64,000 nucleotides of DNA, from contig CBDBMG010000003.1 of assembly GCA_965207375.1 (NCBI GenBank), positions 768,001-832,000 of the forward strand. Direction: 5' to 3'. Both the position numbers and the translations under genes were made by a program. How positions within the stretch are numbered: the first letter of the stretch is position 1; each line of letters begins with the position of its first letter. The DNA comes from Nitrosopumilaceae archaeon (GTDB taxonomy: Archaea; Thermoproteota; Nitrososphaeria; Nitrososphaerales; Nitrosopumilaceae). The notes beneath the pieces were generated by a model. That model ran no database searches. It was not told the DNA's origin and saw nothing but the letters and a program-made list of their open reading frames with translations. Shown here one piece after another: positions 6,638-44,455 of this stretch.

Positions 6638-6940
6638 ATAAAAATTAAAAAGTAAGTAGGGATCGATCTTTCACTGCTACAAAAACTAAGGAAACAAGGA
6701 ATAAGATTTTGGCACAAGAGAACACTAAAGATTCTGGCATGAGATAATTGATAAAAGTTAATCACTACTTTTGGCTAGATCATGGACTACTGAAATCATG
6801 AGCCAAATGTAGGGATTAATTTTTATCAATTATCTCATGCATCTTTAGTGTTCTCTTGTGCCAAAATCTTATTCCTTGTTTCCTTACTTTTTGTACGTAG
6901 CAGTAAAAGATCAATCCCTACTTACTTTTTAAATTTTTAT
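6638..6940. repeat. Foldback element (long inverted arms); related family member at about 12560-13005
   Basis: AAAAAGTAAGTAGGGATCGATC...GATAATTGATAAAA is mirrored by TTTTATCAATTATC...GATCAATCCCTACTTACTTTTT. Confidence 0.75.
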
Positions 6941-8091
6941 TTATTCTAGTTTGTTTGCTTTTTATAGCATACTTGCATAAGTATTTTAGTTGACATAATA
7001 TAATTTAAATCAACCTGTCCTTGCTTTCCAGGCACCAACTTAATTATGTTTTACAGGCGCTTGTTAACAAGAGTGTTAACATGGTAAAGCAGCTGTTTAT
7101 AGTGAATTACATTCAAAAAACATCGAAATCTATTTGTCTAAGTTATCATTATAAAGTAATACTACAATTGAAGTGGTGCTGATGTTATGTACATGTTTTG
7201 TGAAATGGCGTGACAACCATGCATGTAAGTGTATGCACACATGTAGTATACTTAAGTATTGTAGCTGGGATTTTAGCCAATAGAAGCTGCTTCTAAGCAG
7301 TTGTACACTGATATTCCCTCTACCACGTAGTGATTTATAAACTTGTCTGTATAATAAAACAGCCAGTGCGCATTATTGTTCCTGTTTATACTTGGTATGG
7401 AATGTTGTGGTCACGCTGAAATTGTTTACGCATTCCAATGGATAGAGAAGAAAGTAGGATAAAAGAATCACCATGGCGCAGTAGGTAAATTGTCATCAGA
7501 ACAACAGTTTCGTAAATGCGACGAGATTACCTTTGCTGTGTTGAATTTCTGGAGCTGTACACCTAGCACAACCGGGTCTTACATAAGGCTGGCTGGCTGA
7601 CAAAATCCAGGCAATTTTCGAGATTTTTAAAATTCAGTAGCTATAGATTGAAATAATCGACTTTTGCTTTGTTTTACAAATGTACAGCATTATTACAGCA
7701 TTACCAATGCATTTAAGTAGGTTTTTTACAGCTAAAGCCTAGGCTTTTAGTGGTGCAAAAAAGCCGAATTCCATACATTCTTTATCGATCCTAAGTACTA
7801 CCATACTTAATGACAGGAAAATTCATTATTATTTAACCAACTTGAAAACCAGTTTTCATGGATTTTCATGTCTAACTATGTATATCTACATAAAAATTAT
7901 TCACAAACTATCAAAACCAAGGTTTTGATGGGTTTTGAGATGCTTTGTTTGTAAATAAGTGTGTGTCACTATGGCTCACTTATTTACAGGCAAAATTACT
8001 CAAACCATCATAACCAGCCAAACCATCAATGAAAATCAGCCATAATGACACACACTTACATAGCTATTTACAGACAAAACTATGTACTTAA

Positions 8092-8701
8092 GGTGGCTCA
8101 GAATAGTTCATGTATGGCTTCATTATGAAAACTTAAAACCCTTGTATCACTCAGCCACTTTCAATAACCATCTTAAATAAGCAGTTTTTACATTCTACCA
8201 TCTCAAACAAAATTATTTGAGAGTTATACTTTTTGCTTCTTTTACAAATACCAAATGTATTGCTGCTGCTAACTAGCATCCTGTATTTTCTGTCGAATGA
8301 CATTTACCTTATCCTCTACAATTAAGCGGTCTTAATTTTTCTCTCAGCTTTCTTTTTCAAGGGGACAGCTTCTCCAAGTTTCACAGATGCTTTCTAAAAG
8401 TCCGCATTAATAAACAAAACAAGCTATTAAAAATCTGCAAGCGCAGGATTGTAGCCCAGGTTATTGCATCAAAATTTGAAGGCCAAGGGCTAAAATATCA
8501 CTCAGTTATTCAAAAAGGTTTGCCTAGGTGTAAAGATCTACCTGCATGCTCCTTATATTAACTAGTCTGCCATGCCCATTAAATAGTTTACTATGCTCCT
8601 TAAGTAAACTAGTTTACCACAGGTATTACCTGCACAACTATAGATTAGCGAGAATACACTAAACCTTACAAGAAGCCATACATGAATTGTTTGGAGCCAC
8701 C
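8092..8701. mobile_element. Non-autonomous TIR element with GG termini at a TTAA-like site (Kolobok-like)
   Basis: GGTGGCTCAGAATAGTTCATGTATGGCTTC / GAAGCCATACATGAATTGTTTGGAGCCACC, flanked by TTAA and CTAA. Confidence 0.55.
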
Positions 8702-9372
8702 CTAAAACTACTAAAACTGTCAAAACCCCAAAACCAGCCATATATAGCTAGTGACTAACACTATTCAAAAACGTAACAATATTAGCAAGTAGGGGGATGT
8801 CACGATATATGAATTTTTATGTCATAGCTAGCTATGTCATGGAGAATTATGTCACAACATAAATTATAATTGGTTTCACAACACTTTTTATGCATATAAT
8901 CAGTGCAATTAACATTAATGTTAAAAAAAATTTCAAATATATTTACCATTTTAGCCTCGACTACAATATACCACACCTTATCTTATTTGGTATGTCTGCT
9001 GGGATGTACGTATAAATAACTTGTTACGTGATACGCGTGTTTATTTGTGGAATTCATTTTAGGCCCAAAGTTTTACTAAGTTTTTAGGTCATTTTCTTCG
9101 ATGCCCTATTGTAATAGCATCAAGGAAACTGAAATCTTATCCGATACTGAGTCGGGGATCGTCTAATGAAACAATTCACTACAGTCATCACTGCTATGAG
9201 AAGCGCTCGCAAAGTACGTAAGCCTATGCAAAGTGTAATATAAATGTTATAACACAGCCTCGCTCGAGATTTGCCTGATATATATGCACTCGCCCTGCAC
9301 CTCGAACATTGTGCTAATATATCAGATAAACCCTCGCGACTGTGTTACATACATACATACATATATATTTAG

Positions 9373-9491
9373 TAGTTATACCATGGGCACGAGTGGTTTG
9401 CCTGATATATACACCCGAAGCCCGAGGGCCGCAGGCCCGAGGGCTGAGGGTGTATATATCAGGCAAACCACGAGTGCACATGGTATAACTA
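9373..9491. repeat. Near-perfect palindromic hairpin element
   Basis: TAGTTATACCATG...TTGCCTGATATATACACCC mirrored around a GC-rich loop; an older related hairpin surrounds it from about 9245. Confidence 0.7.
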
Positions 9492-11874
9492 TTATATACC
9501 AATTAATGTGTGGGCAAACCAGTACAATTATAGCCTCATGGCCTCCCTGTATTTATATGGGGACTTATTGGATTGCATTGTGGGTTTGAATTTAATGATC
9601 AAAACGTTTTTATGATGTCATATTGAAACCCACAATTAAATCTTGTAGGCCTCACTATATAAATAATTGATCATACTAGTGACCCATGGGCAAACATCAC
9701 CTCAATATGCAATCATGTGTGGGCGAACATCACCCCAAGCCCCACCCCATCCATCATAGCAATGTGATTTGATGATCAAAACGTTTTTGTGATGTTATAT
9801 TGAATCCCACAATCAAATCCAATATGGCTCACTATATAAAGGATTGATCAATATCTACTATATAAATGCAGTCCAAACAGCATTTGGATCAAAGCTATCA
9901 AAGCTTTGTATCAAAGAGTTGTTCAAAGGATTGCTGGAAACCACCTTCCCGGGCAATATCTGAATATTGCCCTCTGGAGAGGGCAATATATTTTATATTG
10001 CCCTCTGCAGAGGGCAATATAAGATATATTGCCCTGCAATTCCCTTTGATCCTCCCACACAAAGTGGTATATATATATATATATTGAAACCATGTATAGC
10101 TAGCTAGATTAGAAAGCTAATTACAAAGTAGCAGCTGCATTTTAAGAAACAAATGTTTCCTGGTATTGAGTAGCTAAGGATCATTAGTCTAAGACAATTA
10201 TCAATGTTTTATTGAAACCTTATAAGATTAGAAAGCTATTTAATTTGAAGGGATTCATTATACAAAGTAGTAGCTATATTCAAAGAAACAAAAGTTTCCA
10301 AGAATTACATGCAAATACATATGCATGTAGCTACGTGATGGAGTCTGCAAAAACAGGTCTTATCTCACAATGATTCAATTACACATTCAATGAACCATAT
10401 AACTTACCTTATGAATAGCTATAGCTATTTTATCTCTCTAGTGCCAAATTTCTTTACCTATAGTTTACCCAGAGTGAGTTAACGTTCTTCAAAGTCATAA
10501 AATTGGATGTGCAGACAAGACCATAGCCACGTACGTATGTGTCAGATCCCCCAAACTTTGGTTTTGTTTAATGCATCATAATGACAACTGATCGACTGTT
10601 TAATGCTTTTGTTAGATGATCACTGAAGTTGATGTAGGACTAAGGTTACTGCTGTCCTCAATTGCAACATTCAGTCCGTATGTATACAGGAGGCTCAGTG
10701 CACTGGTTTCATTGGTTGTGTAATTTCAAGTAAAGTATTACCTACGTATATAGCTGTAAAATCTCATGCTCTTTATAATGTGAGAGAATTCAGGCGGATA
10801 GCTACACTTCAGTGCACACAAAGTTATTTAATTCATAGCTATAATAATGTAGCTAGTTAACTTGATGTTTGTATTCTCCTGAGTCATATCAGCATTGCTG
10901 TCTACACCCAGTAATTAATCATATAATCATAATAATAAGAAGATGCATAATTATCATATAGGGTTGCATGTATTTACATGCAATTTGCCACAAGTCTCTA
11001 GTTACACATAATCAGTGGAAAAACCCTTCATTTGGATAGCTAAAAATTCAGCCAGAGATTCTGCTGGCCTGCCCACTATTTTAGAAAGTTTTGCTGATTC
11101 AGTGCCGAAGTCTACTTGAGTGAGTCACAAACAGGGTGTTGCCAACATGCAGGTTAAGGCTTTACAAAAGTTTACATGAAACTGACAGAGAACCTTACCT
11201 GCATGAGGCCCTTTTATGCTTTAAATTCCCGAAAATGTGGCCAAATCGATGAATAAGACTCAGAGTGAGACCACTAGCCTGACACTCATGCACCTGCAGT
11301 CTCGCCCATGTCAGTTTCCAGCCAGGTGGCTGATTGTACCAATAGAGCAAGGCATCTAAGATGCATTAGGAACAAGCCACATGCAGGAAAAGCAGATCAA
11401 AGAACTTTACGCATTAACACAAGCATAATCGTACGTATATGTAGATAGCTAGCTACTAGTCAAAGCACAGTCGTGAGTGCTGTATACAAAATATAGCATG
11501 AGGGGTGAGGTTGAGTGGGAAATACAGCATAAGGTGTAGCCGAGTTCTGTATTTGCCACGAGACCTCACCCCGAGAACTGCATTTTCCGTACAGCACGAG
11601 TATGCAGTGCTTTAACTGGTTTATTGTTTTGCATGGGATGGCACCGGTTAATCAGTAGCTCTCGTATTAGCTTCGATTTGCTTGCTTATTTGTTGTTAAA
11701 TCAGATAAGAAGGGTAAGAATTATCATCTTACTAAAAAATTGGTTTGTAAGAATTTTTCGCCAATTTTATCGTGTGGGTGGTGAAGCCATATCTACTGGC
11801 TTCCTTCATGGTTCCATTAAGTGCATTGAATAGAATAGTGCAGCCAAAAGGTTACTAAATTATCGCGGACTATA

Positions 11875-43826: not shown

Positions 43827-44286
43827 CAGAGTTGGGGGTAACTAGTTACTTTGTAACTAAGTTACGTAATATATTACTTTTAAAGTAACTAAGTAACTTA
43901 ACAAGTTACATTTCTCAAAAGTAATATGTAACTAGTAATAATATTCCTTTTGCAAAGTTTCAAAATTAGTTATATTACTTTCCGTATTTTCCTGTGAAAG
44001 TCCGTTCACTGATAGTAATTTCAATAAAACTCCTTTAATTAAAAATTGTGTTAGGAATCATGAATAGTGTTACACAGACATATTTTAACTACTTAATATC
44101 AGAGAATTGGTTGCTAAACATGATTTTTACTGCAAAACGAGTGAATTTTAATGTAAAAAGTAACTAGTAATATATTACTAGTTACTTATTTGAGAGAGTA
44201 ATATGTAACTGTAACGAGTTACTTTTCCTGAAAGTAACTAGTAACTTGTAACTAGTTACTTTTTAAAAGTAACGACCCCAACTCTG
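43827..44286. mobile_element. hAT-type MITE (copy of 17295-17777), 12 nt inside a TRMT2A-like intron
   Basis: TIR CAGAGTTGGGG, 8-bp TSD AGAGTTGC. Confidence 0.9.
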
Positions 44287-44298
44287 AGAGTTGCTAAC

Positions 44299-44331
44299 CT
44301 TTGTATGATGCCAGTCTAAATCCAATCACAC
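44299..44331 (-). CDS. TRMT2A: TRMT2A-like exon 8
   Basis: GVIGFRLASYK. Confidence 0.85.
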
Positions 44332-44387
44332 CTGAAATCATAACGTTTTATAAACACAAGTGTATATAGTTAAACACAAGCGCTAAC

Positions 44388-44455
44388 CTTTTCCATCAGC
44401 GCCAAGTCCGATTGTGAACTCACATTTGTTTCTACGTATATCCAGTCTTAGCAGG
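44388..44455 (-). CDS. TRMT2A: TRMT2A-like exon 7 with a 4-bp frameshift insertion
   Basis: PAKTGY[+4 nt]RNKCEFTIGLGADGK. Confidence 0.88.

Follow-up and report, generated by a model that had tools for sequence, protein, structure and literature searches.

Four-base insertions at TA dinucleotides as candidate excision scars of TA-targeting transposons

Motif-bearing sites of the locus

We analysed a 64,000-nt stretch of DNA, called the window (contig C4, positions 768001-832000; all coordinates are positions in the window), in which two hexamers, TACGTA and TAGCTA, recur at places where another copy of the surrounding sequence reads plain TA. A sequence-only reading of the window had proposed that these four-base insertions are footprints left by excised transposons. 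Every motif that it cited was present where it had been placed. These sites, and two tracts dense in the motifs, are as follows (none is assigned a strand):

6894..6899: TACGTA; the partner arm (reverse complement, near 6678) is plain TA, a clean four-base difference in pairwise alignment
10171..10176: TAGCTA; the paralog near 13788 reads GTAAGG against GTAGCTAAGG here, four extra bases with a 1-bp indel adjacent
12891..12896: TAGCTA; the inverted partner near 12667 reads TATA against CATAGCTA here, four extra bases plus one substitution in a gapped alignment
13880..13885: TACGTA; the paralog at about 10275 is plain TA, a clean four-base difference, and our event finder recovered the same site independently
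17401..17406: TACGTA; the inverted paralog at about 44179 is plain TA, a clean four-base difference (two copies empty, one filled)
32728..32733: TAGCTA; exact centre of a palindrome with arms ...TTTATAAACCTCAGG / CCTGGGGTTTATAAA...
44433..44438: TACGTA; end of a 121-aa open frame on the minus strand
10097..16375: TAGCTA-dense tract with 47 TAGCTA, TACGTA interspersed
21761..26497: TACGTA-dense tract with 42 TACGTA, among them short TA-NN arrays of mosaic make-up, as at 22499-22531 and 26014-26038

All five cited pairs of copies carried the extra four bases at a TA; three were clean (6894, 13880 and 17401) and two showed additional changes nearby (10171 and 12891). The position of TAGCTA at a hairpin centre at 32728 likewise proved exact. 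The exon said to be disrupted at 44433 fared less well: the minus-strand frame there lengthened only from 121 to 136 aa when four bases were skipped, and it had no Pfam match, so that an exon at this site is unsupported.

Short-read contigs reproduced motif-bearing stretches of the window. Those of run X1, which may derive from the source sample itself, matched 10055-10364 and 13615-14107 with no differences, and those of X4, from a second study, spanned 10551-10897 and 12282-12520 with no gaps. The stretches covered contain several TACGTA and TAGCTA motifs and, since the contigs of two studies agree, these motifs are not single-platform artefacts. Some short-read contigs omitted the four bases at 17401; they were indistinguishable from paralogs, their depth being summed over repeats, and were not used.

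TACGTA and TAGCTA outrank all other hexamers

The assembly consists of four contigs, C1 (2.16 Mb) and C2-C4 (together 2.14 Mb). C1 is free of microsatellite-type words, and in it TACGTA and TAGCTA occur at 1.6 and 0.6 times the dinucleotide expectation, respectively. C2-C4 combine a CpG observed/expected ratio of 0.46-0.52 with many microsatellites, a strong excess of both hexamers, and transposons of eukaryotic type, namely Tc1/mariner genes with a DDE_3 domain, a THAP9/P-element-like RNase H fragment and a hAT-type miniature inverted-repeat transposable element (MITE). The terminus CGGTAC of a transposon family resident in C2-C4 was found in none of the 60 related bacterial genomes searched, which span 0.8-3.2 Mb. 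Because of these contrasts in CpG, microsatellite, motif and transposon content, and because the related bacteria lack the eukaryotic element, we take C1 to be a bacterial chromosome and C2-C4 to be eukaryotic host DNA binned with it. What was filed as a single prokaryote genome is a chimeric assembly, and C1 was used as an internal negative control for motif excess. We treat the host genome as animal-type; a match in a protein atlas gave a weak hint that points to Porifera.

In the window, TACGTA was observed 138 times, whereas 100 dinucleotide-preserving shuffles gave 14.24 ± 3.35 (at most 23); for TAGCTA the count was 85, with 22.02 ± 5.30 in dinucleotide-preserving shuffles (at most 37). 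Ranked by observed/expected ratio among all hexamers of the whole 4.3 Mb, TAGCTA came first (4.79) and TACGTA second (4.60), above ACACAC. The recurrent four-base observation was confirmed and is much stronger than the sequence-only reading could show. The excess was limited to C2-C4, where TAGCTA reached 6.31-fold (5297 against 840) and TACGTA 6.0-fold (2362 against 394); these two were the only strongly enriched words in a survey of TA-N(1-4)-TA.

Most occurrences stood in a sequence context of their own, the ±10-bp surroundings being unique for 4338 of 5297 TAGCTA and 2087 of 2362 TACGTA. A short repeat with about 190 copies in C2-C4 carries TATATAGCTAGCTATGAGGCTACACAGTGACACA... / TATATAGCTAGCTATGAGG and adds several hundred TAGCTA counts; 129 of its copies have TAGCTAGCTA where two copies read TAGCTA. 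Both motifs were strongly clumped per 50 kb (variance/mean about 15 and about 57 for the two motifs) and varied independently of each other, with a per-50-kb ratio of 0.04-3.12 and a rho of 0.15. Such independent clumping is compatible with two separate sources, neither of which is identified by it.

The insertions are derived, TA-specific and not due to slippage

Indels between repeat copies were collected with a finder in which flank, insert and flank of one copy match flank and flank elsewhere, for insert lengths of 1-12. A strict version required exact 14+14 flanks; a tolerant version used 10+10 exact seeds and 30-bp flanks matching at no fewer than 24 of 30 positions, and dropped microsatellite flanks. 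With the strict finder, 4-bp events with exactly 2-bp microhomology numbered 131 unique contexts, led by TA to TAGCTA (25) and TA to TACGTA (21) and followed by ACACAC (10), CATGCA (7) and TACATA/TATGTA (7). None of the 46 TAGCTA and TACGTA events lay in contig C1. With the tolerant finder, (C)TAGCTA or (G)TACGTA accounted for 56 of 185 clean non-tandem 4-bp events, which bears out the excess of +4 TANNTA events between repeat copies that the sequence-only reading had anticipated in the indel spectrum. No +3, +5 (TACAGTA/TACTGTA-type) or +6 class was prominent in the repeat-copy spectrum. Separately, a series of indels of odd length, built as (AC)k T (AC)k (ACACTACAC, ACACACTACACAC and others), topped the +5, +7, +9 and +11 classes between C2-C4 repeat copies.

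Empty copies read TA and filled copies TA-SS-TA, the form of a footprint with a duplicated TA. Among 53 unique sites, empty copies outnumbered filled ones at 31, the two tied at 15 and filled copies prevailed at 7; at 18 sites there were at least three empty copies and a single filled one, and at none the reverse. Since sites where empty copies outnumber filled ones prevail, by 18 sites to 0 on the strict count, the insertions are derived, and the events were private to single repeat copies. In the events counted, microhomology was 2-3 bp only, flanks were non-repetitive, and no identical 4-mer stood next to the inserted unit. With no pre-existing 4-mer at the site, slippage does not account for these events, as the sequence-only reading required. 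These results support real, derived and TA-specific four-base insertions that did not arise by slippage.

Insertion sites share an integration-like target preference

The 53 sites provide 106 half-sites, of which 65% had A at -3, compared with 36% for all TA. Because a neighbouring TA-NN unit puts TA at -4/-3, we also excluded half-sites with T at -4; A(-3) was then found in 35 of 59 against 31% (Fisher p=1.4e-5), and the bias persisted (p=7e-5) when the comparison was with TA sites lying no more than 150 bp from an event. At position -3, C and G together came to 4% for sites of the CG class and 16% for those of the GC class. Genome-wide, the preference was clear for TACGTA (0.52 against 0.31) and slight for TAGCTA (0.35). 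Ends of the resident CCGTAYA and CGGTAC families leaned the same way but more weakly (0.45 at 133 ends and 0.50 at 20 ends). The integration consensus given for SB100X, a Sleeping Beauty (SB) transposase, in PMC8934666 is ANNTANNT, in which A occupies -3 and T occupies +3; the insertion sites share this A(-3)/T(+3) preference and match ANNTANNT.

Arrays stay short and TACGTA decays at its CpG

Many motifs in the window had a neighbouring TA-NN unit (89 of 138 TACGTA and 35 of 85 TAGCTA). Neighbours of different type were close to independence (CG-GC 157 and GC-CG 156, against 193 and 177 expected), homotypic neighbours stood at about twice expectation, and 66 of the 186 arrays with at least three CG/GC units were mixed. 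Such mosaic arrays are consistent with repeated events at the TAs of earlier scars. The longest pure arrays comprised nine units for (TACG)n and six for (TAGC)n, compared with 73 for (TACA)n, which behaves as an ordinary microsatellite. The short arrays thus fit an accumulation of separate events with some slight slippage, rather than expanding microsatellites, and the suggestion that scars seed (TACG)n and (TAGC)n microsatellites is correspondingly weakened.

Tc1 excision leaves TACATA/TATGTA footprints. Among TACGTA paralogs that differ only in the central dinucleotide, 10 read TG, 9 read CA and 3 read otherwise. Because these centres are mostly TG or CA, part of the TACATA/TATGTA excess probably represents TACGTA decayed at its CpG and not scars of the Tc1 type.

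Resident TA-targeting families and transposase genes

A strict census of termini (preceded by TA, upstream variable, downstream conserved) gave four candidates, CGGTACAGC, CGGTACCGC, CCGTATAGG and GGCCTGAGC. Crude censuses of terminal inverted repeats (TIRs) picked up mostly satellites, along with TA-NN arrays that mimic TIRs; the families retained were those with consistent length and unrelated flanks. The CGGTAC family, with CG...CG ends, had TA before 21 of 21 ends, and unrelated flanks. A minority of its ends read CAGTAC or TGGTAC, which look like products of CpG decay. Several copies are about 800 bp long, with TIRs of 41-45 bp in those of 795-799 bp. Four full-length copies fell into two groups that aligned closely within and poorly between, which we read as apparent opposite orientations of one element. 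No autonomous copy with a DDE transposase between TIRs was found in the 2.14 Mb, only copies of about 0.8-1.1 kb, so that assignment of the family to the Tc1/mariner superfamily rests on its target-site duplication and TIRs alone. The CGGTAC terminus had no matches in public genome contigs or metagenome contigs, and an allele search with a 40-nt single-copy stretch of the window had none in public metagenome contigs.

MITEs with CCGTAYA termini (C...G ends) are commoner than the CGGTAC family, with 146 TA-preceded ends, and GGCCTGAG-type MITEs have G...C ends. A mini-palindrome of about 30 bp, ATCATTAAGTAC-GGTA-GTACTTAATAGTA, occurs in 44 copies with variable flanks in C2-C4 and may be a very short MITE.

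The transposons and transposase genes of the window are:

17119..18233, plus strand: non-autonomous CGGTAC-family element with a 28-bp TIR, left CGGTACGGCTC..., right (reverse complement) CAGTACAGCTC..., CpG-decayed
26889-27394: hAT-type hairpin MITE, TIR TAGTCTCGCAGGCCAGACCC..., 8-bp target duplication CCTTTATC
27434..28441, plus strand: intact Tc1/mariner-type transposase gene, DDE_3 and HTH_Tnp_Tc3_2
57700..58719, plus strand: second Tc1/mariner-type transposase, degraded, in two frames (HTH part 57700-58173, DDE_3 part 58210-58719)

The element at 17119-18233 bears out the claim that a CG...CG-ended element lies in the window. It is flanked by CA|...|TA, and TACGTA stands 10-12 bp outside both of its ends (17107 and 18246), an arrangement that is not significant across the family. 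The gene at 27434-28441 matched PF13358 (E=4.5e-23) and, below the curated cut-off of that family, PF01498 (E=4.4e-06); we take its protein to be of the DD34E type. It is single-copy in the 2.14 Mb, where no second copy defines its ends, and no convincing TIRs were found around it. The sequence-only reading had looked to this transposase as a cause; although intact, it is single-copy, without identifiable TIRs and without a link to CG ends, and that role is not supported. The hAT-type MITE sits about 40 bp upstream of its start codon.

Two adjacent THAP9/P-element-like frames and the region of a 328-aa open reading frame (ORF) occupy 29992-31697 (plus strand) and 32861-33847 (minus strand). 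The two frames, split by a frame change, carry the RNase H N-terminal domain PF21787; the adjoining 328-aa ORF on the opposite strand had no Pfam match. A near-perfect inverted repeat of about 1.9 kb at 51365-53282, with nested arms that are 87-100% complementary, is a large foldback-type element. Two paralogous proline-rich repeat ORFs, at 34651-35718 and 55638-56855 (both minus strand), contain tandem repeats of 30/60/120 bp and of 147 bp and have in common a conserved C-terminal stretch, ...VEQVM.DYPG.DVA.LR.LTTALAREAIFGK...; neither matched a Pfam family.

Excision of TA-inserting transposons as a proposed source of the insertions

We consider it somewhat probable that the changes from TA to TACGTA and from TA to TAGCTA are donor-site scars of TA-inserting cut-and-paste transposons of the Tc1/mariner type. 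This is the best available explanation, resting on TA specificity, polarity, the constant CG or GC, the integration-like target bias and the resident families. From these observations we infer the excision step, the length of the stagger and the family behind each scar. An element inserts at a TA and duplicates it, as is seen for the resident families. On excision, the transposase would cut the 5′ strand slightly inward of the element's ends, by a few bases, each flank would keep its TA together with terminal bases, and end-joining would seal the break. For families with CG...CG ends, the self-complementary CG overhangs could ligate directly to give TACGTA. Alternatively, one base might be kept from each end, so that C...G families would leave TA-C-G-TA and G...C families TA-G-C-TA. 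Each scar would offer two TAs for renewed hits, building short mosaic (TA-SS)n arrays, and CpG deamination would then convert some TACGTA to TATGTA or TACATA.

According to PMC2170065, the 5′-strand cut of Tc1/mariner enzymes falls 2-3 nt into the element, and PMC7827188 describes SB as leaving 3-nt overhangs whose sequence forms the scar. TACGTA is given as a minor footprint of SB, whose ends are CAG...CTG, in a preprint (10.1101/659086); it corresponds to one base retained per end, and CG...CG ends are therefore not required to obtain it. Retention of one base per end would account for TACGTA and TAGCTA alike, C...G and G...C families both being resident. The inserted CG matches the termini of the CGGTAC family, and for the inserted GC only G...C-ended families (GGCCTGAG) were found; a CG...CG rule can account for no more than one of the motifs. 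The sequence-only reading had derived TACGTA from elements with such ends. It was right that a family of this kind exists with a copy in the window, but the ends are dispensable and TAGCTA is left without a GC...GC family.

Several results weigh against excision. A three-state search among paralogs found no site with both an element-bearing and a scar-bearing state; it recovered a short state for only four elements, all plain TA, and is uninformative, since a common insertion history is not to be expected of paralogs. Proximity to extant ends showed no enrichment, with TACGTA lying within 20 bp of 2 of 21 CGGTAC ends and 5 of 146 CCGTAYA ends, compared with 3.4% at random TA, and motif density per 50 kb did not track the density of C...G-family ends (rho -0.05 and -0.06). 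Footprints of two to three bases expected from CC/GG/CGG families were not enriched (TACCTA/TAGGTA 1.14-fold; TACCGGTA 22 against 13.2; TAGGCCTA 17 against 28.1), so that the one-base-per-end route is an assumption whose precedent is the preprint; TACSGTA stood at 393 against 144, an excess comparable to what the element ends contribute. The terminus and TIR censuses of C2-C4 yielded no convincing GC...GC family, even though scars of the TAGCTA type outnumber those of the TACGTA type. The TAGCTA count comes in part from the TAGCTAGCTA-bearing repeat with its roughly 190 copies, and some three excess motifs per kb imply very many fixed excision events. Our literature search, which covered papers outside their supplements, found no published report of such scars accumulating on a genome scale.

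Some of these results are what would be expected if a process independent of any element, such as a lineage-specific nuclease with its repair pathway, inserted palindromic ACGT or AGCT into T|A. It would need no donor and scar pair, no tie in position or density to the TA-targeting elements still present and no GC...GC family, and it sits well with two motifs that are independent and strongly clumped. We nevertheless regard it as unlikely. We know of no TA-specific 4-bp insertion process, and none emerged from the literature search. Flank-templated mechanisms (P nucleotides, snap-back synthesis) would copy variable flanks, whereas the bases added here are always CG or GC. The A(-3)/T(+3) bias, moreover, agrees with the transposase integration consensus of PMC8934666. 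A little less likely again are ordinary microsatellite dynamics, in which slippage and point mutation act in (TACA)n, (TACG)n and (TAGC)n and isolated events are chance births of arrays. The many motifs in TA-NN arrays, the roughly twofold excess of homotypic neighbours and the single transitions that interconvert TACGTA and TACATA/TATGTA would all follow. The counted events, however, with 2-3 bp of microhomology and non-repetitive flanks, left nothing to slip; pure (TACG)n and (TAGC)n reach a fraction of the length of (TACA)n, mixed CG/GC arrays are common, and published tables for cnidarians and Xenopus place ACGT and AGCT with the rarest of the tetranucleotide repeats (PMC4226868, PMC2735965).

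High-copy repeat families that carry the motifs in their own sequence do contribute, since the repeat of about 190 copies contains TATATAGCTAGCTATGAGG and satellites contain TAGCTAGCTATCTATC. As the origin of the excess they are improbable, given the unique contexts of most TACGTA and TAGCTA and the restriction of paralog events to single copies. No point was found in favour of a sequencing or assembly artefact, which we consider highly improbable: short-read contigs of two studies reproduced motif stretches without gaps, and the signal is missing from the bacterial contig C1, which belongs to the same assembly.

Implications and comparison with known systems

We tentatively propose that excision scars of TA-targeting transposons, at about 3 per kb, form the dominant short word of this non-coding DNA and a source of very rare (ACGT)n/(AGCT)n proto-microsatellites. 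Excision footprints are textbook knowledge at single loci; here, two footprint-like hexamers outrank all words, those of microsatellites included. If excision is indeed the source, scars would allow past transposition to be counted even when the elements had long since moved on, giving a record, read from sequence only, of transposon moves rather than of remaining copies. Cut-and-paste turnover could then be a major source of small indels, and an unusual class of palindromic tetranucleotide repeats would be explained. If the scars were not made by transposons, the TA-specific 4-bp insertion process would itself be new.

The closest likeness is to the footprints of Tc1, Tc3 and SB, in which the scar lies at a duplicated TA with terminal transposon bases inside it, cleavage falling 2-3 nt within the element according to passages of PMC2170065. 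TACGTA, TACATA and TATGTA are among the non-canonical SB footprints given in the preprint (10.1101/659086), and the SB integration consensus ANNTANNT given in PMC8934666 matches the scar sites described here. In contrast to those systems, only +4 palindromic forms were seen, with no +5 TACAGTA/TACTGTA-type and no +6; there are two classes, CG and GC, which are the top two hexamers, and the source elements are known only as candidates.

Hairpin-forming transposases (hAT, Transib/RAG) leave palindromic P-nucleotide footprints, and hAT scars keep 8-bp duplications. These too are short palindromic additions at a repaired donor site, but P nucleotides are templated by the flank and so vary, whereas the centre here is invariably CG or GC and empty sites read bare TA. 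Polymerase theta reportedly makes templated insertions, small inserts at repaired breaks that copy nearby sequence; here, unlike such copies, the same four bases appear at unrelated sites. Finally, the head-to-tail TA-NN units and the slippage that some of them show (homotypic neighbours about twofold) recall tetranucleotide microsatellites, but ACGT and AGCT are normally among the rarest of these in the surveys cited (PMC4226868, PMC2735965), and the arrays found here are short and often mixed.

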